Both the position numbers and the translations under genes were made by a program. 33,470 bases of DNA. Origin: Catajapyx aquilonaris (taxonomy: Eukaryota). How positions within the stretch are numbered: position 1 is the stretch's first letter; each line of letters begins with the position of its first letter. The notes under the pieces are model-generated. The model ran no database searches and was not told where the DNA came from. It saw only the letters and a list, made by a program, of their open reading frames with translations. Where the stretch lies: contig JYFJ02005644.1 of NCBI GenBank assembly GCA_000934665.2, forward strand, positions 1 through 33,470, read 5' to 3'. Below are positions 1 to 33,404 of this stretch, piece by piece.

Positions 1-290
1 GCGAGGATATGTCGAACGAAGACGATGAATCCGCACCCGTTTTTCTCCTCGCTTTGCCTGAAAAGTGGCGCGGTCGCCAGGTACCCGGCCCTCTTAAATG
101 TTTAAAATTTGCAATTTCTATCTTTTTAACGCAATTTCTGTCTACACCCCTCAGTTGTACGTTATTATAGAAAGTCAGCCAACAAAATTGTTGGATACGC
201 AATTCGTGTTGTACAGAAATTCACTCACGGAGAATAGGCCCCGCATTTTGTTCTTGCCCTAGGCCCCGCACCCACCTAGGGCCGGCCCTG
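1..290. mobile_element. Right end of a hAT-like non-autonomous element, truncating the Merlin relic
   Basis: Ends in CTAGGGCCGGCCCTG (reverse complement CAGGGCCGGCCCTAG, a typical hAT-type terminus). Merlin coding sequence starts immediately after 290. The left end is not identified. Confidence 0.45.
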
Positions 291-875
291 TGGTCGCTGT
301 TCCTGACCAGCAAGACGCTATTGAAAGTGATAAAAGACAAAATTATTGATGGTACAACCATAATTAGCGATTGTTGGAAAGCGTATGCCTGTTTACGGGA
401 ACGAGGATATCGCCATCTACAAGTGAATCACTCACTAAATTTCGTTGACCCCGACACGGGGGCTCATACCCAGAACATCGAGAGGAGTTGGCGAGAAGTG
501 CGCACCAAAGTACCCAGGTATGACGGATATATGTAATGTAGAGGAAGCCCTAATGGATATTTACCCTGATTCTGGTTACTGTATACAGATATGGTCTAAA
601 GAGCGCCCATTTCGCTGGTTATTTAGCCGAATTTATGTTTAAGAGAGCCCTCCCCGACCACAGAGAGAGTTGGCATCATTTCATGCTTGCGGCCGCAAGC
701 TTATATCCTCCTAACCAGCCTTAAGGTAAATAGCCTTCTAATCCTCCGTCTAACACGCCGCCAGTCTTGCCCTATAGTATCGATTTCTGTGCTATTAAGC
801 AATAAGGCAGGCTCGTCTATACCCAGTATCGAATTTATCGAATCCGATAATTTCGATTCCGATATTCCCAGGACC
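291..875 (+). pseudogene. Merlin (IS1595/ISXO2-like DDE) transposase relic, 5'-truncated, with one GT-AG intron and probable right TIR
   Basis: Translates as GTTIISDCWKAY...LQVNHSLNFVDPDTGAHTQNIERSW. After removing 518-588 it continues YGLKSAHFAGYLAEFMFKR...LYPPNQP* (stop 722-724). Frameshift near 307. Putative terminus ...GATATTCCCAGGACC at 875. Confidence 0.85.
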
Positions 876-3194: not shown

Positions 3195-3806
3195 AATCCA
3201 GTACCGCATAGCCAAACGTGGTGCAGAGATGCTGTCTCCTGGGGGACGCATGGTGTACTCAACCTGCTCTTTGAACCCACTTGAAGACGAGGCTGTGATT
3301 CACCGACTATTGGTGGAAACAGATAGGGCAGTAGAACTAATTGACATTAGCAGTCAGTTGCCTGGACTGAAGTACTGTCAAGGACTCTCACACTGGGTCC
3401 CCATGTCACGGGACATGGTGGGCTATGATTCTTTTGAAGATGTACCCGAGAAGTGGCACACACAAATTCGACCAACAATGTTTCCGCCCAAGGCAGAGGA
3501 TGCGGCTGTTTTCAACTTGCATAGATGCATACGTGTTCTTCCACACCAACAAGACACTGGTGGCTTTTTTGTGGCAGTGCTAGAAAAGAAAAAGTTGTTG
3601 CCATGGGAGAAGTCAAGGACAAGTGAGGCAGCAGTTGTTGACGTTCAGCCAAGCAATTGTGATGTGGAGGCTGTTCCAAGTGATTCATTAAAAGAAGCTA
3701 AGGAGAAGGATCGTTCTCCAACACGTAAGAAGCGCAAAATGATGGGATACAAGGAAGATCCTTTTGTGTTTCTTGAATCCAATGAACCAATCTGGCCAAG
3801 CATACG
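3195..3806 (+). CDS. NSUN2: NSUN2 RNA (cytosine-5)-methyltransferase, internal exon with catalytic motif VI
   Basis: IQYRIAKRGAEMLSPGGRMVYSTCSLNPLEDEAV...HTQIRPTMFPP...RVLPHQQDTGGFFVAVL...GYKEDPFVF. Acceptor AG 3193-3194, donor GTTAGT at 3807. Upstream exons are outside the window. Confidence 0.96.
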
Positions 3807-3862: not shown

Positions 3863-3998
3863 GGATTTTTATCGGCTTGATCCAACTTTAAAGCCATCAT
3901 GGTTCCTCACAAGGTGCAAAGAAGGAAAGAAGAAGAACATATATTTCACTACTCCTGCAGTGAGAGATATAGTTATTAACAATGAAAATAAGCTGAAG
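3863..3998 (+). CDS. NSUN2: NSUN2 exon
   Basis: RDFYRLDPTLKPSWFLTRCKEGKKKNIYFTTPAVRDIVINNENKLK; TTGCAG acceptor, GTAAGA donor; frame is consistent with its neighbours. Confidence 0.94.
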
Positions 3999-4066: not shown

Positions 4067-4141
4067 ATAATCAACACAGGAGTGAAAACTTTTGTACGCT
4101 GTGATAACAAGGGTACATGTGATTTTCGTTTGGCACAAGAG
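4067..4141 (+). CDS. NSUN2: NSUN2 exon
   Basis: IINTGVKTFVRCDNKGTCDFRLAQE; TTGCAG acceptor, GTGAGA donor, phase 0/0. Confidence 0.94.
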
Positions 4142-4467
4142 GTGAGATTCTTTCTGTATATCTCAGGCTATTTTATAATTTGTAATTGCCCTTTATCTGT
4201 AGCATCTAGTAGCATAGTGAGTCAATTTGTAGGATACTGTGTTCTACCTATATCAAGTGGGAGGGTCCACGGCTGAATTCCCCAGTTCAAGGGAATAAGT
4301 CTGTTGTGGATTGTTGACCAGGGAAATAAATTTAAAGGTCAACAACTCATTAGAAACAACCACTGGTCTCTACACTGGATTAAACATCTAGGTGGTGTCT
4401 TCCTGTGCCTTGGATGGTCATGTTGGGACTCCAAAAATAATATTGATTGTGCACTGCTCAATTAATA

Positions 4468-4778
4468 CACTACTCCTGATTCTCCATGTTTCGGATTATC
4501 CATGCATGGCTAAAACAAATAAAAGTCTGAAAAAATGTCAATTTTTCTCACAAACGAAGAAATATAACAGACTTTTTCCACAATGCAAACTAAAAATCTA
4601 TGGAAATTTGTCGAATTTTGATTGAATCTGATTTAAACCAGAATACAGTCGTTCATTTAAAACCTGTGAATAGCTCATTTTACGGTATCTAGGACCATTT
4701 TCCAATTAATTATCCATCATTTCCAATTATCCGGCGACATCCGTGCAGCCATTAGCCCAGATAATCGAGAGTACAGTG
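4468..4778. mobile_element. Tc1/mariner (pogo-type) MITE, degenerate
   Basis: TA-CACTACTCCTGATT...ATAATCGAGAGTACAGTG-TA; same family as 15056-15438 in the opposite orientation. Confidence 0.65.
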
Positions 4779-5573
4779 TATTGCAGTTGTTTTTTTGACT
4801 CCTTCTGTACTAGTTTATTTCATGCTTATATTGCCATGTAATGTAGAAATTTGCCAAAGGAGATCAAAAGCTGGTTGTGGTTGTTTTTAATATTGTTAAT
4901 TTTCAAAATAAATTCTCACTGGTTTCGGTTGTTTACGCAGCAGTAACAGGTCATGTGTCACATGCAAAAATAACTGCTGTTTCCAGCATAAAAAGCTATT
5001 GAGAAATCTACTGTCCCATCATGGTGCTCAAAAGAGGCAAAAATTGTAGTATTGATCATGACAATCTTCAAACCAGTGTATAATGGACATCAGTGGATGG
5101 AACGGTCACATCCAGTTGTCGCGACTGTAGTTAATCTCCTTAAGCTGATTGCTGGGGTAAACAAGCTATAACATCCCTTGAATCTGGGTCTCAGGCATTG
5201 CTGTTCCATGCATAAATCTCCAGCTCCTACATGCACATTATAATTCACATCAATAAGCATTCATATAGACCTGCATTTGTTACTTTGTGTTTGATTACTC
5301 CAAGCTTCCCCATCCACCAATGCCTCCTCTCCAGTTGATGTGCTACATCTGAATTTAATATCAAACACCAGGAAGTGGCATTTTGGGCATTTCTACTCTT
5401 TCACGAGATTGATTTAACCAGTCTGTGATGAAATTGAATATTGTAATAAAGCATCATGCTACATGTACTGTAGGGTATGAAACGTTATAATGCAGTTTCG
5501 AATACTAGGATTTATTACCTCATAGTATGTCATCTGGCTGGCAGTTGGCCCAAAACAAGTCAAAAATGTAGAT

Positions 5574-6323
5574 GGGAGAAAAATATAGGGACCAAAAGGT
5601 AACAAGGTAGATTACCAGGTCTGCCCCTAGAGCCTAGACACGTACACCAATACACCTTTATGTAGATCACCTGAAAGATGTATCTGTGCACCTAGAGTTG
5701 TTGCCTAGGAAGCCACGAGCATGATAATCATTACTGGTAATCTCACAAAATCCCATCAGTAATTATTATCATAGCCATGTACAGTACCGCTCATAAAGAA
5801 TGGTATGACTATGGACAAAATGTTTATTCTGTTCCCAATCCCTGGGTCACCAGCATGTTTTAGGGGTCATGAGGAGGCTGGGAAAAGGCAATTAAAATCA
5901 AGAAAAAAATAGAAGATAAAAACAAGGCAAAGTAAGAAAATGTAAGAAGGGAAATTCATCTCTAATCTATGTAAGCATTGTACCATGTTGAACATTTTGG
6001 TAATAACAAATTTCGGAAAAAGTCGGGAAGGGGTCATATGGGTCACCAGAGATCTAGGACAAGTTGTCCATAGTGTCGCGACGAAATCAGGTTGGGAATA
6101 ATGCTGGATAGTAAGAAGAAACACGTTGTCCTTAGAGTCGTACATTTCTTTATGAGAGGGACTGTACTTCTCCCCAGGCAACCACTGTTAGGTATGCAGG
6201 CCCGTCTGTCAGGCAATCTTCCTGCTAAAAGGCACAGTGCATGTTGCCATGTGTCTTGGTGGGCAGGTCAATGTGTCTGATCATCTAGTTTGTTACTGGT
6301 TGGTCCCTCGACATTTCTCCCCC
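5574..6323. mobile_element. Old unclassified TIR element
   Basis: GGGAGAAAAATATAGGGACCAAAAGGTAACAA at 5574 is an imperfect inverted repeat of TTGTTACTGGTTGGTCCCTCGACATTTCTCCCCC ending 6323. A similar end occurs near 1010-1035. Confidence 0.4.
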
Positions 6324-6766
6324 ATTATCATTGTGTCTTAGTTTGCACAACTTGATATGGTACTATCGGCACAGAATTGGTCTGGACACGTGGGAGGTGC
6401 CTGAGGGTGATGCTGGCTGCCAACACTTGCGCATTGTTGGGGCAAGTCGGAAAATTATTACAAAGAGTAATAATTTTTCTACTTGCCCTAACATCGTGAG
6501 AAAAGTGACAACACTGAAGCAGCCAACGTGGGAGGGGTGAGAGGGCAGTCTTACAGCTGAGGTGGCCCAGGGATGGGGAGTCGCACAGCCTTAGTGATCC
6601 CAGGTGACCTCTGCTGTATATGTGCACAGGGATAGCTTTTTTAGATGAAGGAAAGAAGACTGCTAATTATACACTACTAAGAGAGGGTTGCAAGGGTTAT
6701 GGAGTAAGAGACAAATTCACACATTATGTGAGACCTATCATATTCAAATAATGTAATTCAATAATA

Positions 6767-7408
6767 CAGTCGACTCCAGATATAACAGCCTTCAAGGGTC
6801 CACAGAAATCATTTTGCTATAAGTGAGGTTTGTTATACCGTATTACCTCTCATATTGCAGCATGCTGGTGTAGGTGAGGTCAACCAATTTTTAGAAATGC
6901 ATGATCTGGTGGCTATGCCGGCATGCCGGCATAAGACGAGGTATGCTGGTATAAGGCGAGGTTTTCACATAAGTTACATTATCCTTTCCGAACTTGACAT
7001 TTGCCTGAAAAGCAAAATTCACGTAAAGGCTGTCAAAAAGCCACATTTTCTGGCAAAAATCTCTATTTAAACAGTATGTTGAAGCAAGGGGTTCCCCTGT
7101 CAAAGCAGGCTGACGATGGGATTGGTCACACAATCTACATTTTTTATATGCACTGTGCAACAGAAGTTGCACATTCTCACAGCTTGTACACTCGCCCATT
7201 TTCATTGTAACATTATTTTAGTATGCTACCAGATGCATTCCAAATTTTTTTTGGCAAGGATCAAGATTACGGAAATCTACCTCCGTTATTGCAGCATGCC
7301 GGCCACCCCCGGGTTATACGGGCATGCTGGTCGACCTCGTTTCATACCGGCGTGCCGCAATATGAGAGGTAATACTGTAGCTGAAGCTGTTATATCCAGA
7401 GTCAACTG
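6767..7408. mobile_element. Tc1/mariner (Tigger-type) MITE
   Basis: TA-CAGTCGACTCCAGATATAACAGC...GCTGTTATATCCAGAGTCAACTG-TA plus internal inverted repeats. Confidence 0.8.
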
Positions 7409-7515
7409 TATATATATTCAGCGGTATAATGAGCAAGTCTATATAAAGCACAGGAGACAATGCTGCATAATTTCTTGATGAAAAGTGACTTGTTGCTATC
7501 TGCAATGAATCATAA

Positions 7516-8426
7516 AGGTGCGTTCACATATACGTGAATAAACACTAGCGAGCAATTTTCAGGTTTTGCTTTTTCACGTCTTTTGCATCACGAATCTAGC
7601 GAATTTTTGGAAAATTTTCCAGGCATTCACGTATCCACTCTGCGATAAAACTTACTCAGTAGTTATGGAGCATGCGCTGTGCAGCAGGGGAGGTAGGAGG
7701 GAGGACGGGGTCGGGGTCGTGTGGGCAGGGGGAGGTGTTGGGCTGAGAAAGATGGCGGAGCCCTGTGTTGTGGAGGCAGCCGGCATGGCAGTGAAAATGC
7801 TGCTGAACCGACCTCGGAAGGGTGTCCAGGTCACAGTGCACCAAGTGGGGCAATAGCTGGACATGGTGCGGAGGCTGGCCGGGTTGGGAGTTTGCGACAA
7901 ATAAATTGGTAACTTCCGAGCTCGGGCATTCGCATTCCTAACATGGCCGAGGAAGGCCGGCAAGTCCGCGTGGCGGCGCTGGGTGCCTCGAACCAGCTCC
8001 AAAATTTGCTCGCGTCAAAAATTCGCTTCTATCTGCCTCTGCCAGAGGAGCGTGATTTTTAGTTAATAATAATAATAATTATTATTATTATTGTTGTTGT
8101 TGTTGTTGTGGTTGTTGTTGTTGTTGTTGTTATTCTTCTTCTTGGGTAGAGGGTATGCAGCGCAGACCTTTATTGTAACTTGTAGTACATAGACCATATG
8201 CCCGGGCCCAGGGGCAGGATGACAGGAGGGGATGTGCAAGGTGCAGTGCAATGTCTTAAACGTGGCCATTTTTAGTGAACTCCCCCGGGTGGTTTAGTCT
8301 GTTGGAAATACCACCAGAGACGAAGCCAGAGGTGACCCTGAACTCTGCACGAGATGAAGGGGGTGTCCCTAGGCTGGGATCGATCCCGGGACATTAACAT
8401 CCGTGGGCGCATACGTTACTGCAGCA

Positions 8427-8471
<45 letters not shown>

Positions 8472-8631
8472 NCCGCCCCCCCGATTTTTAGTTTAGTCGC
8501 GTAAGTGACCAAAATTTGCCAGCGTCTAGGAGAAACTCGCCGATACGTGAATGCCTTCGGCCAGACGCGAATTCGCTGTAAGCTGAAATTCGCTCGCTTT
8601 TGATCAAAATCGCGTATATGTGAATGCACCT
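7516..8631. mobile_element. PIF/Harbinger-like non-autonomous element with a nested SINE
   Basis: TAA TSD (7513-7515, 8632-8634); 19-bp TIR AGGTGCRTTCACATATACG. Confidence 0.8.
8065..8482 (-). mobile_element. tRNA-derived SINE family A (tRNA-Arg(ACG)-like head)
   Basis: A/B-box head AGTGGTGCTGCAGTAACG...CCCGGGATCGATCCC. 11-bp TSD GATTTTTAGTT (8054-8064, 8483-8493). Trinucleotide tail and an (AG)n expansion inside the head. Confidence 0.85.
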
Positions 8632-9016
8632 TAAGACCTCAGAATGGGAACAGTTGTTGCTATTGTTGTTGCAATTGCTTTCGTCTGGTCAAGGGTGTCT
8701 CACTTGTCAATATTTGATCTCGTTCTGGGATAAATTCAATAACATGATGACAGGAGGCGTGGGCATTTTCCATGGCGTTATGGTTTGGCTACAAGCATAC
8801 TAGACACTGGAATATAAAATCTTCAGTGACAAACTCAATCGACATGGTAATAAGCACCTTAAATTGTAGATAAAAACCCCCATTTGTAGGTTTAGTAATG
8901 CACGATTTGGGCGCCCTTGACAGTCTTGTACTCCTGCATGAACAAGATCAAAAGATGTGTAACATCATAATACACCATATGAGGATGTATAAAAGGGTAT
9001 TTTAAGGCAATATTTA

Positions 9017-9584
9017 CAGTGAAACTTCCATAAGTCGAATCTCCATGGGATCGGGGAAAAACTTCGAGTTAGAGAAGTTTGAATTTTTTAAAGCACAGAA
9101 CTCTATACGGAAGCCTACCTCTGTATATTCAGCGATGAAAGGTGTTCAAAACTTAAAAATAACTGTCACTATCACACTTACAATGTTCCTCGTTGTTTTG
9201 TTGTAAAAAAACTCAGTGATGGACATTTGCCTACTCTTAGATTCAAGGATTCAATTTTCACAATCGAGTCAACACTACTTTCGGTACGTCCGGCAGACGG
9301 AGATCAGGATATTCCGCCTTTCTGCACATGTGGCCTACTCTCGACTCTTCTGCTGGGAAATGAGAAAATTTTCCGTACTCACGAACATGAACTTCGACTT
9401 AGGGAGACTGAAAATGCATTGATATCCCATCGTAAGGCCCTGCCAGCACTTCGAGTTATGGAGAACTTCGAGTTAGGGAAGTTTATTTCCTATTATTTTA
9501 CATTGTGACCAACCAAGCTCGTCATTTTCTTCGACTTATAGAGAACTTCGACTTAGGGAAGTTCGACTTACAGAAGTTATACTG
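9017..9584. mobile_element. Tc1/mariner (Tigger-type) MITE
   Basis: TA-CAGTGAAACTTCCATAAGTCGAA...TTCGACTTACAGAAGTTATACTG-TA; repeated TTCGASTTA motifs. Confidence 0.8.
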
Positions 9585-9752
9585 TAACTAAACCACACTG
9601 ACTTTCTTACCACATACAAAATTGATCTGTTTTGCCTTGTCCATGCTCCTCTTGAGTGGAACAAGTGGAAAATATTTTTCACTTGCATTGATGAGGCTAG
9701 CTTGCAATGGTGCGACTGAACCCAAGCCTCCTTCACTATTCTCTTTTCTTAG

Positions 9753-9903
9753 GGGGTAAAGGTAATTCGTCCATTTGTGGGGGCTAGAGTGGTCGATGTA
9801 TCCTGGGAAGACTTGGTGGTCCTGTTAACCAATGATGATGACCACAAACCACCTGAAATCATTACGTTTCATCCTGCTACCCAGCTGATGCTAAGCCTCA
9901 TAG
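9753..9903 (+). CDS. NSUN2: NSUN2 alternative exon A (putative mutually exclusive)
   Basis: CTCTTTTCTTAG acceptor, G|GTAGGC donor, 151 nt, stop-free: GVKVIRPFVGARVVDVSWEDLVVLLTNDDDHKPPEIITFHPATQLMLSI-type reading that fits between RLAQE and ETGSLVL. Confidence 0.85.
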
Positions 9904-10049
9904 GTAGGCCTTGAAACTGTAGGAGTATGAACAAGTGTGCAGAAGATGGACAAACTTGCTTTGTCCACCTTCTTGATAACCCTGCTATCCTCTTACCTTG
10001 AACCCTACTGAAGCAATTAAAAATTAGCTGCAACGCATCTTGCTTGCAG

Positions 10050-10191
10050 GGTTTGCATATCATAGCTCCCTATATATGCGCACGTAAAGTATACATGACA
10101 TTAAATGATGCCATAACCCTCTGCAGTCATCCGATGCCCTTTATGTCCAAACTGAGCTCCTCTTTACGGAATCAGTGTGATGGGTTACAAG
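10050..10191 (+). CDS. NSUN2: NSUN2 alternative exon B (putative mutually exclusive)
   Basis: CTTGCTTGCAG acceptor, G|GTAAGG donor, 142 nt, stop-free: GLHIIAPYICARKVYMTLNDAITLCSHPMPFMSKLSSSLRNQCDGLQ. Aligns with exon A and with the same NSUN2 segment. Confidence 0.8.
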
Positions 10192-10629
10192 GTAAGGGTT
10201 TGGGCAGTGTTGACCCTGCATTGCATGTCAAATACGTCAAAAGCAATGTTATGCATAAGCAGTACCCTTGGTTCTCCTCTAGCTAGTGCACAACAAATAG
10301 TGGTGTTTTGTAGTAGGCAGCAGCTCCCTAGTGTATTGCATAATTGATGGTGCTTGTGCATGAAGGCATTCAATTCAAAAAACTCGTGTGTTATCAAATT
10401 TATCATATTTACTAGAAATCTGTTCACTACAACAACAAAAAATCTCAACAGGATGCCTCTTTTGCACTGCTGTCATACAGAAAAACAGGCATCACTGCGA
10501 TGTTTGATTGAGTAGTGTAGACAGGTTTCATTGAATGATTATATTGGTAGACATTTTATGCTTGACAATTTGAGCACTACACCTCAAACCTATGCTTTGG
10601 CATCTGTGTTGCATATAATCAATGATTTT

Positions 10630-11182
10630 GCCCCCCGAGAATGCATGTCGGGCACCTCCCACTTTTCAAATTTCCACAAAGGACCCCAGGCTGCCAGATG
10701 GTGAGGTTTTTGAAAATAATGTTGTTACTTTATAAAACAATTACATACAGAAGTGCATCATATCTCAATATCACCGAAGCAAGTTGGTGTGGTGGTTAAG
10801 GAGCCCTACTGCCCGGAGCCGGCAACCCTGACTGGTTTTCAGTGGTTTTCCACGGTCCCCCCAGGCTAATTCCGGGGTTGTTTCCGTATAATAGGCCACA
10901 GCAGGGCCACAGCCACTTCCTTCCTTCCCTATCATTGGCCCCATCCAATGGTGGTACTCCACCCCCCTAATGGAGCACTGATTCTCCCAATGGGGTATAA
11001 ATAAATAAATAAATAATAATAAAAATATCTCAACATCAATTTACATGTGAAAAGCACATGCACCTGAGTAATATTTCTTTGAGGTAATGTTCGCTTCACT
11101 TGGTACCCTCACTCCCCCCCCCCTTGGAGCATGCGTAGAAATTTGAAAAGTGTGAAATGCCAGATGTGCATTCTCGGGGGGC
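10630..11182. mobile_element. Unclassified MITE containing a SINE
   Basis: GCCCCCCGAGAATGCA...TGCATTCTCGGGGGGC inverted termini with about 50-bp imperfect arms; no clear TSD. Confidence 0.6.
10773..11024 (+). mobile_element. tRNA-derived SINE family B, B-box deleted
   Basis: Starts ACCGAAGCAAGTTGG like the copies at 26617 and 30877; core GGTTTTCAGTGGTTTTCCACGGTCCCCCCAGG; (TAAA)n tail; TSD ATATCTCAAYATC at 10760-10772 and 11025-11037. Confidence 0.85.
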
Positions 11183-11234
11183 CGCTAGCTATAGTTGCAT
11201 GACCAGCAAAAAAATATTCAAGTACATTAGTGTA

Positions 11235-12009
11235 CAGGGTCATCGAAAACGAATGTCCCATTTTTAAAACCCTATAACTCGAAAACTTGCAGACATATTT
11301 GAATGATTTCGGTTTTGAAATACCAAGAAAGGTCTAAAGCTTTGGTTTCAGCTTAGTTTGTTTCGATATGGGCTTCATTTGTCGCTAGGCAGATAAAAAC
11401 GGTGGCATTTAGTCTCGTGCCAAACCCGCCCAATCATATCTGGAGTTACCATTGCCATTGGTGCTGGATATCTCTGATATTTACACCACAGACATTGTTC
11501 TTGAAGATTCAAATTTCAACTCACACCACACAAGAACTGATCACCTGGAAAACTAGTGACTATTTGCACCAAAACCTCTGAGAAGCCCCAGGGTTAAACC
11601 AAAATATGGGAAGAATGAGACAAAAGGAAATGCAGCTGATAGTTTCCGTCCTTTCCCAGTAGTGGGCCAGTAAATTGATCTCATATAGTAGCCTACCCCT
11701 TTCCTACAAACAACGGGGGGTCCATTCAAGTAGGGGTCAGTTCTTGGAAGTGAAAACATACAGAAAGGGTCAAGGGCCTATCTTAGGCTGGACATGCTGA
11801 AACATTTTTCCATTTGTGATATGACTATAGTTGTATATTGTCGCGGTCCGGAGAAAATTGCGCCATGGTCTGGGTCCGGACCGCGGTCCGCCAGTTGAAT
11901 AGCCCTGCCTTAGACATTTCTTAACATTTCACAACTTACATCATTAAGATATCTCTACAAGTTTTCGAGTTATAGGGTTTTTTATGGGACATTCTTTTTC
12001 GATGACCTG
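11235..12009. mobile_element. Tc1/mariner non-autonomous element with a nested hAT-like end (about 11840-11907)
   Basis: TA-CAGGGTCATCGAAAA...TTTTCGATGACCTG-TA; same family as 26456-27476. Confidence 0.8.
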
Positions 12010-12667
12010 TATATTAAGTTTTGGTGAATTATTTTTATTAAGCTAGTGCATGTTCCTAAGAACAATATTAGCATCATGTCCATATGCATCCTAACAGTAT
12101 GTAGCAAATAATTTTTCCTTTCAATTGAGAGTTCATAATATCAGCCTTTACAATCTGTAAATATCTGTTGGCCAATTTGATAGGCAGTTAAATATTAAGA
12201 TTATAGCAATCAGTAAAGGAACTTTTATGTAGGGATTTTTTAGAGATTTTATTATAAAAAGTCACAAAAATTATCAGGAGATTTAAAAGGAGTCAAATCT
12301 ACTGGGATTATTGTTGCACTTTAGCAGGGCACTTAAAGACTACTTGGCAACAGTAAATGTCAAAGCAATCCCACCAGGGACACCAGGGCTTAATGGCTTT
12401 TGTACTGCATGGCTTAAATATGTCTTCCACCTGTAATGGAAATATTTCTTATTGGCATGGTGAGCATGGCCCAATTCATCTGATCATTTGCTTGTCAACA
12501 ATGGGTGGAATTTTTGTCCCACTGCTAGTTACAGCTAACTTAGCAGTGCCATATAATTATGGCCAACACTGGTTGCGAAGTTAGCAGTAACTAGCCGTGG
12601 GACTAACATTCCATCCAATGACTTACCTCAACAATCATACAGTTCATTGTCACTTGTTATTTTGCAG

Positions 12668-12835
12668 AAACGGGAAGCTTAGTCCTTGTTTATGAAGAGA
12701 ACAGAAAGGACGACGACATTCCATTGCGAATAGAACTGGTGGGCTGGAAAGGAAAAACCTCGGTGAGAGCATATGTGCCTAAGAATGAACGTATTCACTA
12801 TCTTCGCCTTTGTGGGGCTGACATCTCCAAATTTG
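12668..12835 (+). CDS. NSUN2: NSUN2 penultimate exon
   Basis: ETGSLVLVYEE...LVGWKGKTSVRAYVPKNERIHYLRLCGADISKF; TTTGCAG acceptor (phase 1), GTGAGT donor. Confidence 0.94.
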
Positions 12836-12889: not shown

Positions 12890-13080
12890 AACACAATAAG
12901 TTCAAGGAGAGGGAAAAGCAAGGGGATGGAACCAGCAGGGATGAGGCGGACGAGGCAAGTTTACTAGGACAAGTTAATGAAGAAGACATAGGTGACCAAG
13001 ATGCTGAGAGCAGTGCAAGCCTTCCTGATGGTGAATCAGCCTCCACTGGCAACTCTGTTAATGATGTAGAAGCCAAGTGA
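12890..13080 (+). CDS. NSUN2: NSUN2 last coding exon (acidic tail)
   Basis: EHNKFKEREKQG...NDVEAK*; TTTGCAG acceptor at 12889, TGA 13078-13080. Confidence 0.88.
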
Positions 13081-15798: not shown

Positions 15799-16008
15799 GG
15801 GAGGCGGAGTGGTGTTGCGGTAACGTATGCGCCCACGAATGTTAAGGTCCCGGGTTCGATTCCAGCCCAGGGACTCCCCCTTCATCTCGTGCAGTGTTAG
15901 GCCATCTCGGGCTTCGTCTTGGGTGGTATCTCCAATAGACAAACCACCCGGGGGAGTTCACAAAGCGACCACACATGAGACATTGCACCGCACCTTCACA
16001 TCCCCTCC
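15799..16008 (+). mobile_element. SINE family A, 3'-truncated
   Basis: GGGAGGCGGAGTGGTGTTGCGGTAACG...GGGTTCGATTCC head; body shared with the 19085 copy. Confidence 0.85.
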
Positions 16009-18683: not shown

Positions 18684-19084
18684 ACTTGTCATGATTGACA
18701 GAATTAACCAAAATCAGGCTCCTTTACCTATTGACCTAGTGCCTGATGAAGATTTGATGATAGCCAACTTTGGCTTTTCCGGTTGTGAAGCATAGGTTTA
18801 GAAGTGAAATTTGAATTTCCTGAAGTAGATAAATTGCACCAAAATAATCTTCATCCTCTGCACACCTATTCGCGTATTTATCTACAAACATTGTTCTCCT
18901 TTCTCTGAATAGTGAGTGGAGTTCACCCTCTTACACACTAACTTCTCCTTTTCTGTCTATTGCTCCTACCACCACCAGGATGACTGTCATTGGTAGAAGT
19001 ACATTCCAGGGGAAAACCCCAGGGGAAAACACAAAGGAGTCCTCCATCTGGAAAGCTGCAATAGGGTCTACTGTCATCTGTCAA

Positions 19085-19441
19085 GGGAGGCGAAGTGCCG
19101 CTGCGGTAACGTACGCGCCCACGGATGTAAGGGTCCCGGGTTCGATACCAAGCCCGGGCATCCCCTCCTTCATCTCGTGCAGAGTTGGGGTCGTCTCTGG
19201 CTTCGTCTCGGGTGGGATTTCTTGAGACTAACCACCCGGGGGAGTTCACAAAATGTACCACGTTTAAGACATTGCACTGCACATTGCACATCCCCTTCTA
19301 CTCATCCCCCCTTCGCTCGCGGTACCTGGGCGTTACGGAAAAGGACCACTTGTAAAGCTTGTACATCTGAAGCATAATAAAGGTACCGTGCCAGATGCCT
19401 AAGAAGGGCGGTGCACTAAACCCAATTATATTATTATTATA
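19085..19441 (+). mobile_element. SINE family A, full length
   Basis: A/B boxes, (TTA)n tail, TSD TACTGTCATCTGTCAA (19069-19084) / TACTGTCACCTGTCGA (19442-19457). Confidence 0.9.
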
Positions 19442-20592: not shown

Positions 20593-20878
20593 TTACTCTG
20601 TGTTGGCCTCTGCGTTGGCCTCTGTGTTGGCCACTGTGTTGGCCTCTGTGTTGGCAGCAGGTTTTCCCTTCTTACAGGCTTGTTCTTTCCAGGCATCCCT
20701 GTCTGCTGCAGCTTCTTTGATGAGATCTTCTTGTTTCTTTATTTCAGCAAGTTCTTCTTTCAGCTTTCGCTTCAACTCATGGACTCGCTGATCTTCTTTA
20801 TCTGTCACTTGTGGAAGGTGGCACCGGCGCAGTTGCTGCTCAGTTAGTCCCCTTCGGCAGGTGGGACACTTCGGAGAG
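20593..20878 (-). CDS. RING-H2/coiled-coil protein exon 2
   Basis: TTTGTTTCCAG acceptor. SPKCPTCRRGLTEQQLRRCHLPQVTDKEDQRVHELKRKLKEELAEIKKQEDLIKEAAADRDAWKEQ...(ANTE)n* completes the RING in frame with exon 1. Confidence 0.85.
20596..20655. repeat. Coding 12-bp tandem repeat x5 (ANTE/ANTV/ANAE)
   Basis: CTCTGTGTTGGC units read directly. Confidence 0.95.
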
Positions 20879-21071
20879 CTGGAAACAAATTAATTAAAGC
20901 CACACTGACTCAACAACACTCTAAAGTTGCGAGTGGGTTTAGGGCGCAAATACGAAAAATGAGAATGAGAATGGCCAATTTGCAACTTTCGAAAATGCAC
21001 TGTTTTGCATGGTTACTATGATACTATGTCATAAGCACTTATGCTATTATTGTGATATCGGTACGAGAAAC

Positions 21072-21205
21072 CTTTTCACGGAATTCACTGCGCACAACTT
21101 GTGGAACACATGTCCACACGGCGCGTAGCAAACTTCCTGGTCAATAGTAGATGAATAAGTTTTGGAGCACAGCGTGCATCCAGGAGCCGTGCGAGATAAA
21201 GCCAT
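21072..21205 (-). CDS. RING-H2/coiled-coil protein exon 1 (putative E3 ligase, TRAIP-like architecture)
   Basis: ATG at 21205: MALSRTAPGCTLCSKTYSSTIDQEVCYAPCGHVFHKLCAVNSVK; donor AG|GTTTCT at 21071. Spliced product is 139 aa with C3H2C3 spacing. Confidence 0.85.
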
Positions 21206-21601
21206 CCTGACACTACTGAGAAAACCAATCCAACAAACTAGACTAAACAAACACCATAGCGACCACAAGTAGCCGACCAAACGTTCTAATTCTGCTAAGC
21301 CAAGGTATTGTCAGATGAAAATGTTGGATCGAGCGCCGTCGGCCATATTTGATATGGTAACTGTGATCATAGCCACCTAGTGTCAGAGTCTTGTAAATTT
21401 TCAGGCGCAGTAGTTGGCGTCGTAGTATGACCATGGATGCTGGGATCTAGAGGAGGATTGTCCAGATGTCGTGTTTTTATTCATGTTTTATTCCATGAAC
21501 ACATGAGCAGCGGTTCGCTCTGTTGATTTTAAAGTTTTTATTAGGTGGTCGTATAATATTTAAATGTTGCTGTGAGTTGAAAGTGGGGTACAGGAAATGC
21601 C
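21206..21601. promoter_or_regulatory. Shared bidirectional promoter/5' UTR region of the RING gene and kappaB-Ras
   Basis: 396 bp between divergent ATGs, free of recognisable repeats, CpGs retained. YY1/Pho-like GCCATATTTG (21342-21351) and CTCF-like GCCACCTAGTGTC (21372-21384) are motif matches only. Confidence 0.6.
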
Positions 21602-21700
21602 ATGGGGAAAATTAGCAAAGTTGTGATATGTGGTATGAAAGGATGTGGGAAAACTGCAATTTTGGAACAGCTGATCTACAGCAATGTAGATAAAGGCACG
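21602..21700 (+). CDS. NKIRAS: kappaB-Ras (NF-kappaB inhibitor-interacting Ras-like) exon 1
   Basis: MGKISKVVICGMKGCGKTAILEQLIYSNVDKGT; P-loop; GTAAGC donor. Confidence 0.95.
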
Positions 21701-22145
21701 GTAAGCATGTACAACAGTGTAATATTGCTTGCACATTTTAATATAATGCAGAGAAACATCCCACACAAGGGCAAAAGGTATTATTGCTTTGCAATGCTGT
21801 TATCGTACGTACAGGTTATCATGAACTGAATAGACCAAGGAAGGATGTGACACAGTGTCACATCCTTCCTTGGTTTATTCAGTTCATGATGAAATTATGC
21901 CTGAAAGTGTCACTGACACTGAAACTGTGTCTTGTGATTTCAGGCATGCTAAACTGGTCTATGCATCTCAAAAGGGCAGTCATTTTGTATCCGAATCAGA
22001 AACATATGAGTGAAATCTAATGCTTTCAAGTTGCTCTTTCAGGGAATAAATACATAACTTATGTATTTTGTGATGGGAATGGAAAATGCATTTCTGAGGC
22101 TTCCTTATTTTTTTTTTGCTTTCATATTTGTTGACACGTATAATA

Positions 22146-23580: not shown

Positions 23581-23717
23581 TAAATATCGCCCTGGATAGC
23601 TACAATCATAGGCAGAAAAATGACAGTGATTCATGTTTCAAGGCTCAAGGAAATTCACTGGAAAATCCCCCACATCACCAATCTTGTAACAAAATACAGT
23701 AGCATAATTGTGACTAT

Positions 23718-23880
23718 AGGGGAGGCAGAGTTGTGTTGCAGTAACTTACCTGCCATGGATGGGAGGGTCCTGGATTTCATCCCAAGCGCAGGCATTCTCC
23801 CCCCCATGTCGTGTAGCGTTGGGTTGTCTCTTGCTCTGTATCTGGCTGAATTGCTGCTAGACTAATCCACCCAGGGGAAC
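23718..23880 (+). mobile_element. SINE family A, old truncated copy
   Basis: Degenerate head and AGACTAATCCACCCAGGGGA body motif. Confidence 0.65.
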
Positions 23881-27679: not shown

Positions 27680-27975
27680 TAGCACAGACCTTCATTATTC
27701 CTGTCTGTGATACATATTGGAACCTTTTTTGCAAAGCACCTGGGTCTGCAGGGAGGGTGAGTGGGAGGGGATGTGCAGTGTGCAAGTGCAATGCCCTAAC
27801 TCAGTCATTTTGTGAACTCCCCCCCCCAGGTGGATTAGTCTAGCAGAGATTCCTCCCAAGATGAAGTCAGAGATGACCCAACTCGCACGATGAAATGGGT
27901 GAATGCTTGGGCTTGGGATCGAACCCAGGACCCTTCCATCTGTGGGTGCTTATGTTACCACAGTGCCACTCTGTT
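27680..27975 (-). mobile_element. SINE family A, diverged
   Basis: Reverse-complement head AGTGGCACTGTGGTAAC...GGGTTCGATCCC; body and tail match the 33105 copy. Confidence 0.8.
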
Positions 27976-28679: not shown

Positions 28680-29172
28680 GTCAGGTGCAAGGTCAAGCAT
28701 TACCCCAATCATTGATAAATAGTGTGTATTCACATTGGAGTAGAGACATCATTGGTTTTCATAAAAAGTCTTTAATTTTTTGACCACTAAAGTACATCAA
28801 GTGATTTTTACCACAGGACTGGTCATTACTTCATGCTTCATTCAGACTGTGTGAGCATATCATAAATGAATAATATCGACTCCAATGAGATCCAGATGGA
28901 GGCCTATTTTGCTCTTGGAACATAAAATAAGGGAGGAACTAAGTTTTTCAATTGAGCACTGACAGTGAGTGTGAGTCTGGAAGTGTGCAGTCTGTGAGGT
29001 AGGCCCAAGGGGGAAGTCACTTTAGAGAACCGGTGTACACTCCCACTGGTGAGCCTCGGGGATTATTAGTAGCTAATAATCCCATACCCATAGGATGCAT
29101 GGTTAAAGGACATTTATAAATTACTCATATGTATAATGGGTCTGTGTTATGATCACATGAAACATTTGGCAG

Positions 29173-29415
29173 GTGCTACCATCAACAATTGAGGACATCT
29201 ATGTTGCTCACATTGAAACGGACCGAGGTACTCGTGAGAAGATACGCTTCTTTGATGTTGGTGGACTTACCTCTCCTACAAAAGATCTCCTTCCTCGGCA
29301 TTACCTGAGCTTTGGCGATGGGTACATCCTTGTGTACGATAGCAACAAACCTGAGTCATTCCAAGCACTTGATGCTGTCAAGAAAGATATTGACAAGAAC
29401 AGAGACAAGAAGGAT
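29173..29415 (+). CDS. NKIRAS: kappaB-Ras exon 2
   Basis: VLPSTIEDIYVAHIETDRGTREKIRFFDVGGL...LPRHYLSFGDGYILVY...KKDIDKNRDKKD; GGCAG acceptor, GTAAGT donor. Confidence 0.96.
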
Positions 29416-29631
29416 GTAAGTCGAGATTACCTTATTTGTGAGACAGTTGAAATTTCAACATTTAACATTATTGATGCAGAGCAAGAGCTCAAAATCAATT
29501 TCCTAATAACTATACCATTATGGGATATGTATATCCCATGATCTTGGACACTTGGACAAAACAATTCCAGTTTTGCTTTCATCCCCTGTCTAAAAACCTT
29601 TGTATGCAGGATTTATCTTGTTTCATTCCAG

Positions 29632-30876: not shown

Positions 30877-31158
30877 AATAATTCATACCTTGTTATCAGC
30901 CTATCGGCTCTTTAGGGGGGAAGTTTTTTGTTTTGCCTGGAACTCATTGCTTTCATTTTACTGCGCTTCTTGGGATAGGATAGGGACGGAAGGAAGCGGC
31001 TGTGGCCTATTAATTACGGAAGCAACTCCGGAATTTTCCTGGAAGGACCGTGGGAAACCACAGAAAACCACGGTCAGAGTTGCCGGCCCCAGGATTCGAA
31101 CCCAGGACCTCCCGATTAGCAGTCGGACGCCTTATCCACTCTGCCAACCTGCTTCGGT
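30877..31158 (-). mobile_element. SINE family B
   Basis: Colinear with the 26617 copy; TSD ACCAATGGCCAGTT (30863-30876, 31160-31173). Confidence 0.9.
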
Positions 31159-33005: not shown

Positions 33006-33104
33006 CTTCACAACCCTGCTTTGATGTGAAAATAAATGATCTTTGCTGTCCGGAGTGTCTTCGGACGCCCCTTTATTCCACGTTGTAGGATGAGTCCACA
33101 GATT

Positions 33105-33404
33105 AATGGTGCAGGAACTGCAGAAACATATGCACCCACGGGAAAGGGTCCCTGGTTCGATCCCAAGCCTGAGCTTTCTCCCATTCATCTCATGCAGAGT
33201 TGGGTTGTCTCTGGCTTGATCTCAGGTGGATCTCTGTTAGACTAATCCACCCAGGGGAGTTCACAAAATGACCAAGCACCAGCATTGCACATGCACCTTG
33301 CACATACCCTCCCAGTCACCCTCCCCACAGATCCGGGCACTTCGTAAATAGGTTCCAAAATGGACATAATAATGTGCACAGAAGAATAAAGGTCTGTGCT
33401 ACAT
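33105..33404 (+). mobile_element. SINE family A, diverged
   Basis: CCCACGGG...GGTTCGATCCC head, GGGGAGTTCACAAAATG body, AATAAAGGTCTGTGC tail. Confidence 0.8.

Follow-up and report, generated by a model that had tools for sequence, protein, structure and literature searches.

The 3' part of the NSUN2 gene of Catajapyx aquilonaris contains two neighbouring exons, A and B, that appear to descend from an old tandem duplication of the exon encoding the first half of the PUA domain, and a message must carry exactly one of the two to stay in frame. Exon A is spliced into mRNA and is the default exon. Exon B is intact, and its sequence points to an exon type older than that of A. The reading that best accounts for these observations, and whose chances are judged to be about even, is that A and B form an old, intact mutually exclusive pair in which A is the default and B a rare, tissue-restricted or regulated alternative. 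Two NSUN2 isoforms would then be made from this gene. In animals, m5C in tRNA and mRNA is written mainly by NSUN2, whose choice of substrates is an open question; if exon B is used, the gene offers a natural experiment in the form of two enzymes that differ only in a PUA loop. If exon B is never used, the pair is an ordinary leftover of exon duplication.

Gene layout and reading frame

The window (the whole stretch of DNA analysed, 33,470 nucleotides of contig JYFJ02005644.1 in GenBank assembly GCA_000934665.2) holds the 3' part of NSUN2 on its forward strand, and the exons were read directly from the sequence (Table 1). Pfam recognises the end of the RsmB-F methyltransferase domain (PF01189, 3196-3804, E 6.1e-10), the window having the end of this domain only, followed by Pre-PUA_NSUN2 on the exon just upstream of the pair (PF25376, E 2.9e-06) and positions 38-87 of PUA_NSUN2 on the exon downstream of it (PF25378, 12670-12834, E 4.4e-15). 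Positions 1-37 of the PUA profile must therefore be supplied by exon A or exon B; P0001, the A-type protein of a relative, matches PF25378 over positions 1-87. Transcript evidence is taken from X1, the only public sequencing run found with this stretch, which is kept as contigs and whose kind is not on record.

Exon A is bordered by AG at 9751-9752 and GT at 9904-9905, and exon B by AG at 10048-10049 and GT at 10192-10193, with an intron of 146 nt between the two exons. Both are free of stop codons in the frame set by exon 4067-4141, both have lengths of 3n+1, and the final G of either is the first base of a GAA codon (E) whose other two bases open exon 12668-12835. With such lengths between a phase-0 border and a phase-1 border, a message must carry exactly one of A and B. 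When the gene was spliced in silico, A alone or B alone gave an open frame to the natural stop, whereas the frame met a stop 35 nt into B when A and B were joined (293 nt), and 12 nt into exon 12668-12835 when both were omitted. The preliminary description had named the gene NSUN2, placed the exon pair in the C-terminal, presumed RNA-binding (PUA-like) region, reported AG/GT sites, open frames and 3n+1 lengths for both exons, and claimed that exactly one of them preserves the frame; the Pfam matches, the direct reading of the borders and the in-silico splicing bear out all of these points.

The early stop in the A+B form could also be the purpose of exon B, which would then be a poison exon that is included along with A and lowers NSUN2 output. 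The position of that stop, upstream of two more exon junctions, would suit such a role, and the A-B intron is long enough for splicing. A poison exon, however, needs no conserved protein sequence, yet exon B is NSUN2-like along its whole length (41.6 bits) and its codon positions bear the pattern of protein selection, and the X1 contigs contain no A-B joint, all of which makes this explanation very unlikely.

Table 1. Positions of the NSUN2 exons, the candidate RNA stem and other features within the window
Feature	Positions	Strand	Evidence
NSUN2 exon, end of RsmB-F methyltransferase domain and linker	3195..3806	+	PF01189, E 6.1e-10; X1 contig, 0 mismatches
NSUN2 exon, pre-PUA region	3863..3998	+	GT..AG joints 3806>3863 and 3998>4067
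NSUN2 exon ending in RLAQE, phase 0, just upstream of the A/B pair	4067..4141	+	PF25376; joint 4141>9753
Exon A, 151 nt, 'long' pancrustacean type, seen in mRNA	9753..9903	+	Spliced contig; profile score 56.0 bits
Candidate docking element in the A-B intron	9990..10005	+	Complementary to the B 5' splice site, with a weaker match to the start of exon A
Exon B, 142 nt, apparent 'short' ancestral type, intact	10050..10191	+	Borders, frame, profile score 41.6 bits
B 5' splice site, 3' arm of the predicted stem	10182..10198	+	Fold and duplex energies
NSUN2 exon, second half of PUA domain, common to both forms	12668..12835	+	PF25378; joints 9903>12668 and 12835>12890
NSUN2 last coding exon, stop TGA at 13078-13080	12890..13080	+	Sequence; joint 12835>12890
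IS1595/ISXO2-like DDE transposase fragment	171-536	+	PF12762, E 1.8e-09
RING-finger frame, CxxC...CGHxFHxxC	20593-21310	-	RING families, E 4e-05 to 6e-03, all below cut-offs
P-loop frame, resembling a Ras-family small GTPase exon	21581-21829	+	
Frame resembling a Ras-family small GTPase exon	29161-29541	+	Weak match to PF00071, E 3.4e-04
Short interspersed repeat	~8256-8415, 15824-15960, 19081-19230, 23655-23860, 27839-27950, 31010-31130, 33036-33220	both	Similar translated frames in the list of open reading frames

Outside the exons of NSUN2, the RING-finger frame is probably a small RING gene; its neighbour on the same strand is a coiled frame rich in Glu/Lys. The X1 contigs pile up on the copy of the interspersed repeat at 8140-8475, where their summed depth is ~6000.

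Homology, exon types and selection

Residues 1-27 of A and B align with each other in register with the splice acceptor (Smith-Waterman, BLOSUM62 score 43), a score that none of 5000 shuffles reached, and this result together with the compatible phase upholds the earlier claim that A and B are homologous tandem exons. The similarity thus measured is real, but weak and old. Among the 1511 stop-to-stop frames of at least 15 amino acids in the six frames of the window, only those of A and B score above 6 bits against the NSUN2 exon profiles, so there is no third copy there. Several searches returned nothing for exon B (no alignment of A and B by BLASTP, no match of B by phmmer to the solved NSUN2 structures, and no NSUN2 family in Pfam for B alone), as might be expected of an open frame that arose, splice-like borders included, by chance; exon A alone likewise finds no NSUN2 family in Pfam, and matches human NSUN2 among the solved structures at E 0.17 only. 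The chance reading is refuted by the shuffles, of which 0 of 5000 reached the A-B score and 0 of 2000 the profile scores of B, by the alignment of B with P0054, and by the scan of the 1511 frames, which together leave it practically no probability.

The closest protein found among 5.8 billion clusters was P0001, a transcript-derived protein of the closest relative that is 64% identical to A, and in which the next exon follows the A-type segment without interruption. When 1.84 billion representatives were searched by phmmer with P0001 as the query, 234 matches had E<=0.001, and the homologue set was drawn from the best 150 of these 234; the 75-row alignment consists of A and B of the window and of 73 proteins (cluster members included) whose alignment to either exon scores at least 40. 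The homologues fall into a long class, in which a 4-residue insert is followed by Pro-Pro-x (Timema, Diploptera, Darwinula, Anopheles and Lutzomyia, all pancrustaceans), and a short class with the motif ENPF-x-SK-x-S (two lizards, hagfish, Octopus, Mercenaria, Ylistrum, Nucella, Tubulanus, Centruroides and Limulus), which is seen in vertebrates, molluscs and chelicerates; most other rows carry no species name. The insert is present in all five named pancrustacean rows and in exon A, and exon B is without it. In the 11 named species that are not pancrustaceans, the full insert is absent throughout, with a gap of 4 columns in 10 of them and of 3 columns in the nemertean Tubulanus. In the protein model of Timema podura (P0002), the downstream PUA exon is present as two adjacent, identical copies of 55 residues, which may be an artefact of assembly or annotation or a real tandem copy.

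Profiles made from the two classes separate the exons of the window. With the long-type profile, exon A reaches 56.0 bits and exon B 24.5; with the short-type profile, the values are 32.4 for A and 41.6 for B. None of these four scores was reached by any of 2000 shuffles. Real short-type members score 33.9-86.2 bits (n=23, leave-one-out), which places B at the low end of their range, above Tubulanus (33.9) and just below Nucella (43.8). The best single match of B is the short-type protein P0054, with which it aligns ungapped over 46 residues (score 100, ~48% identity). Word-index protein searches with B found no match among proteins of 84-2000 or of 25-83 residues. In a tree of the flanking exons (49 rows), the window's gene lies inside a 24-row clade with all named pancrustaceans (SH-aLRT 83), and in a tree of the exon itself (71 rows, 52 columns), B lies inside a 26-row short-type clade (ultrafast bootstrap 94, SH-aLRT 89) and A lies outside it. 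A sister relationship of A and B was not rejected by an AU test (p = 0.34, 52 columns); the substitutions by themselves therefore do not settle the placement, and separate evidence comes from the insert. Taken from sequence comparison, exon B is best understood as the ancestral 'short' exon type and exon A as the derived pancrustacean 'long' type, and B is neither a chance frame nor a recent copy of A.

The main rival to a rarely used exon pair is that exon B is a recently silenced relic, i.e., that it functioned through most of its history, as an alternative or as the original exon, is no longer spliced in and has had too little time to decay, a possibility that has to be taken seriously even if it is regarded as somewhat doubtful. 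The distribution of the exon types among relatives speaks for it to some extent, as P0001 has the A type and the copy can evidently be lost. The preliminary description had proposed to look for both exons in related NSUN2 loci, and the outcome was positive for one type only: when metagenome contigs were scanned with a 4-row alignment of the downstream exon, six related loci emerged, all six with a long-type exon (40.2-52.3 bits) and none with a B exon. The two genomic loci among them, L005 and L006 (20 kb), have no short-type exon, the best frame reaching 5.0 bits against the short-type profile, and in L006 the A-type exon is separated from the exon after it by only ~70 nt. These two loci belong to more distant relatives of the window's species, and they indicate that B is missing in at least some relatives that bear the A type.

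Codon comparison bears on how long exon B has been maintained. A and B are identical at 11 of 27 first, 19 of 27 second and 4 of 27 third codon positions, and the difference between second and third positions is significant (Fisher p = 8e-5); NG86 dS between them is not computable because the sites are saturated. Saturated silent sites combined with retained second positions point to an old split, with both copies under purifying selection for most of the time since. The duplication is therefore old, and B was kept under selection at the protein level for most of its history. Nine columns of the exon are conserved (>=60%, 62 homologues), of which B keeps eight and A seven, the one column that B misses having Cys in place of a 97%-conserved Leu. 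This Cys, together with the Met that B has where human NSUN2 has Asn635, makes B odd at two well-kept places, and along with its low-end profile score this would suit a silenced exon; against such silencing, the frame, both splice sites and eight of the nine conserved columns are intact, and the excess of second- over third-position identity reflects long protein selection.

Transcript evidence and a predicted stem at exon B

A 1857-nt contig of run X1 matches the window with 0 mismatches and with the introns absent, its joints being 3806>3863, 3998>4067, 4141>9753 and 9903>12668, all of them GT..AG, and exon B being skipped. In the bin 9820-10155, the X1 depth of 2.37 equals what exon A alone would contribute with 82 bases at depth 9.7. 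The stretch 9904-10491 is free of X1 contigs, in a data type in which rare forms are dropped. Of the four junctions that the preliminary description had put forward for RNA data, the two that involve A (4141-9753 and 9903-12668) were thus found, and the two that involve B (4141-10050 and 10191-12668) were not seen in the X1 contigs. There is no record of B in RNA, the sole spliced contig over the pair being one that uses A and joins across B, as would be predicted if B were silent; since contigs drop rare forms, however, X1 shows that A is used and not that B is never used.

A second X1 contig (depth 3) joins an internal donor within the downstream PUA exon (12762/GTGAGA) to 12890, dropping 73 nt of that exon. 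By hand translation, this joint shifts the frame and leads to a stop ~25 codons into the last exon, and the resulting form would be an NSUN2 without the last PUA strands.

The splice sites of the two exons differ in strength in opposite ways. The 5' splice site consensus is MAG/GTRAGT, and against this consensus the site of exon B (CAAG/GTAAGG) has 8 of 9 matches, better than the 6 of 9 of exon A. The polypyrimidine tract of B is weaker, with 11 pyrimidines in the 18 bases before the AG versus 16 for A. The weaker tract would be in keeping with a relic, and the well-preserved 5' splice site argues against one.

The 5' splice site of B is also buried in a stable predicted stem. As read from the predicted fold, the element at 9990-10005 in the A-B intron pairs with 10182-10198 over 16 bp with one bulged base, spanning the whole 5' splice site of B, and the element was also found as the inverted repeats I6 and I7. 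Both structures predicted for 9904-10230, MFE and centroid, contain the stem (z = -2.98, 1 of 100 shuffles folding as well), although it was found post hoc and on one sequence. The best duplex of the B 5' splice site with the 400 nt upstream has a dG of -24.9 kcal/mol, compared with -17.0 ± 2.0 for dinucleotide shuffles, none of which (0 of 300) reached it, and the upstream sides of the other five 5' splice sites of the gene are unremarkable, with 31, 74, 98, 113 and 300 of 300 shuffles reaching their values. Within 9000-11000, the best partner of the element is the B 5' splice site (-29.7), and its next best partner, overlapping windows aside, is the start of exon A (9752-9788, -20.6). A hairpin with 14-nt arms that are 93% complementary and a loop of 5 nt (I4) lies at 9941-9973 in the same intron and also appears in the predicted fold.

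Such a stem can be reconciled with either a silenced or a regulated exon: the burial of the 5' splice site speaks for a relic, and what speaks against one is that an exon out of use would have no need of a stem devoted to its splice site. On the preferred reading of a mutually exclusive pair with A as the default, the stem would hold down the use of B, so that A is used when the B donor is hidden, and pairing of the same element with the acceptor region of A would instead free B, giving a two-state switch. The 16-bp stem is regarded as a lead towards such a switch, which, if true, would be a small one consisting of a single stem on a single splice site.

The PUA loop and comparison with known systems

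Aligned to the solved human chains with HMMER, the A/B exon corresponds to human NSUN2 G607 to ~K654 (607-654) in the PUA domain, and the same alignments number the human loop as Q633-E634-N635-P636-F637. According to a preprint (bioRxiv 10.64898/2026.03.16.712100), Asn635 and Phe637 of human NSUN2 hold the CCA tail of the tRNA, the ENPF loop stacks on the tRNA 3' end, and Arg602 helps to hold the tRNA 5' end. Arg602 itself falls in the upstream exon that both forms share. At human 636-637, exon B retains Pro-Phe, and exon A has the 4-residue insert just before the loop, a Pro-Pro-Glu loop, and Glu at the place of Phe637. By analogy with the human complex, the A and B forms would differ in the pocket or loop for the tRNA 3' CCA end, the B form bringing the ancestral Pro-Phe loop and the A form the pancrustacean loop, and the m5C substrate preference might switch between the two forms, as the preliminary description had suggested. 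The fullest version of this account, in which the pair already existed before the pancrustaceans spread and acts as a two-state RNA switch between two NSUN2 enzymes with different RNA-end or substrate preferences (e.g., mature CCA-bearing tRNAs versus other targets), is considered unlikely.

No mutually exclusive exon pair in NSUN2/Trm4 was known to the preliminary description, and among the papers listed by full-text literature searches none was found that describes one in NSUN2 either. NSUN2 is absent from the main texts of two surveys, one of mutually exclusive exons (PMC5740500) and one of tandem duplicated exon substitutions (PMC9741552), whose supplements may list it, and no second copy of the A/B-equivalent exon in human NSUN2 is described in the literature searched. 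If exon B is used, an RNA-modifying enzyme joins the genes with old mutually exclusive exons, which are said in the main text of one of these surveys to be enriched for ion transport (PMC9741552).

In comparison with the human NSUN2-tRNA complex, as presented in the preprint (bioRxiv 10.64898/2026.03.16.712100), exon B resembles the human protein in retaining Pro636-Phe637 of the CCA-holding loop and differs from it in having Met at the place of Asn635, and exon A differs in its insert and in the Glu at the place of Phe637. Docking-site and selector RNA pairing is the means by which one exon of a cluster is picked in Dscam1 exon 6 and 14-3-3 xi. As in those systems, a single intronic element of the Catajapyx gene is predicted to be able to pair at either alternative exon. 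Unlike in those systems, the NSUN2 element, which is known from a single sequence, would hide a splice site rather than bring one near.

The main text of Hatje et al. 2017 (PMC5740500) recognises mutually exclusive exons as similar sequences of comparable length and the same frame whose joint inclusion shifts the frame, and also asks for junctions from every exon of a cluster to the flanking exons that bridge the other. A and B are neighbouring, similar in sequence, in the same frame and of similar length, and their joint inclusion was not seen, there being no A-B joint in the X1 contigs and early stops in silico when both or neither are joined. Unlike the clusters described in that text (PMC5740500), the A/B pair has junction evidence for one of its exons only, the bridging junctions being seen for A and none for B in the contigs of one run. 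Like the pairs attributed to tandem duplication in the main texts of both surveys (PMC5740500, PMC9741552), A and B are neighbouring homologues in the same phase, with a frame shift on joint inclusion or skipping, and, like the known mutually exclusive pairs described there, they appear to be of old origin with both copies under selection at the protein level.
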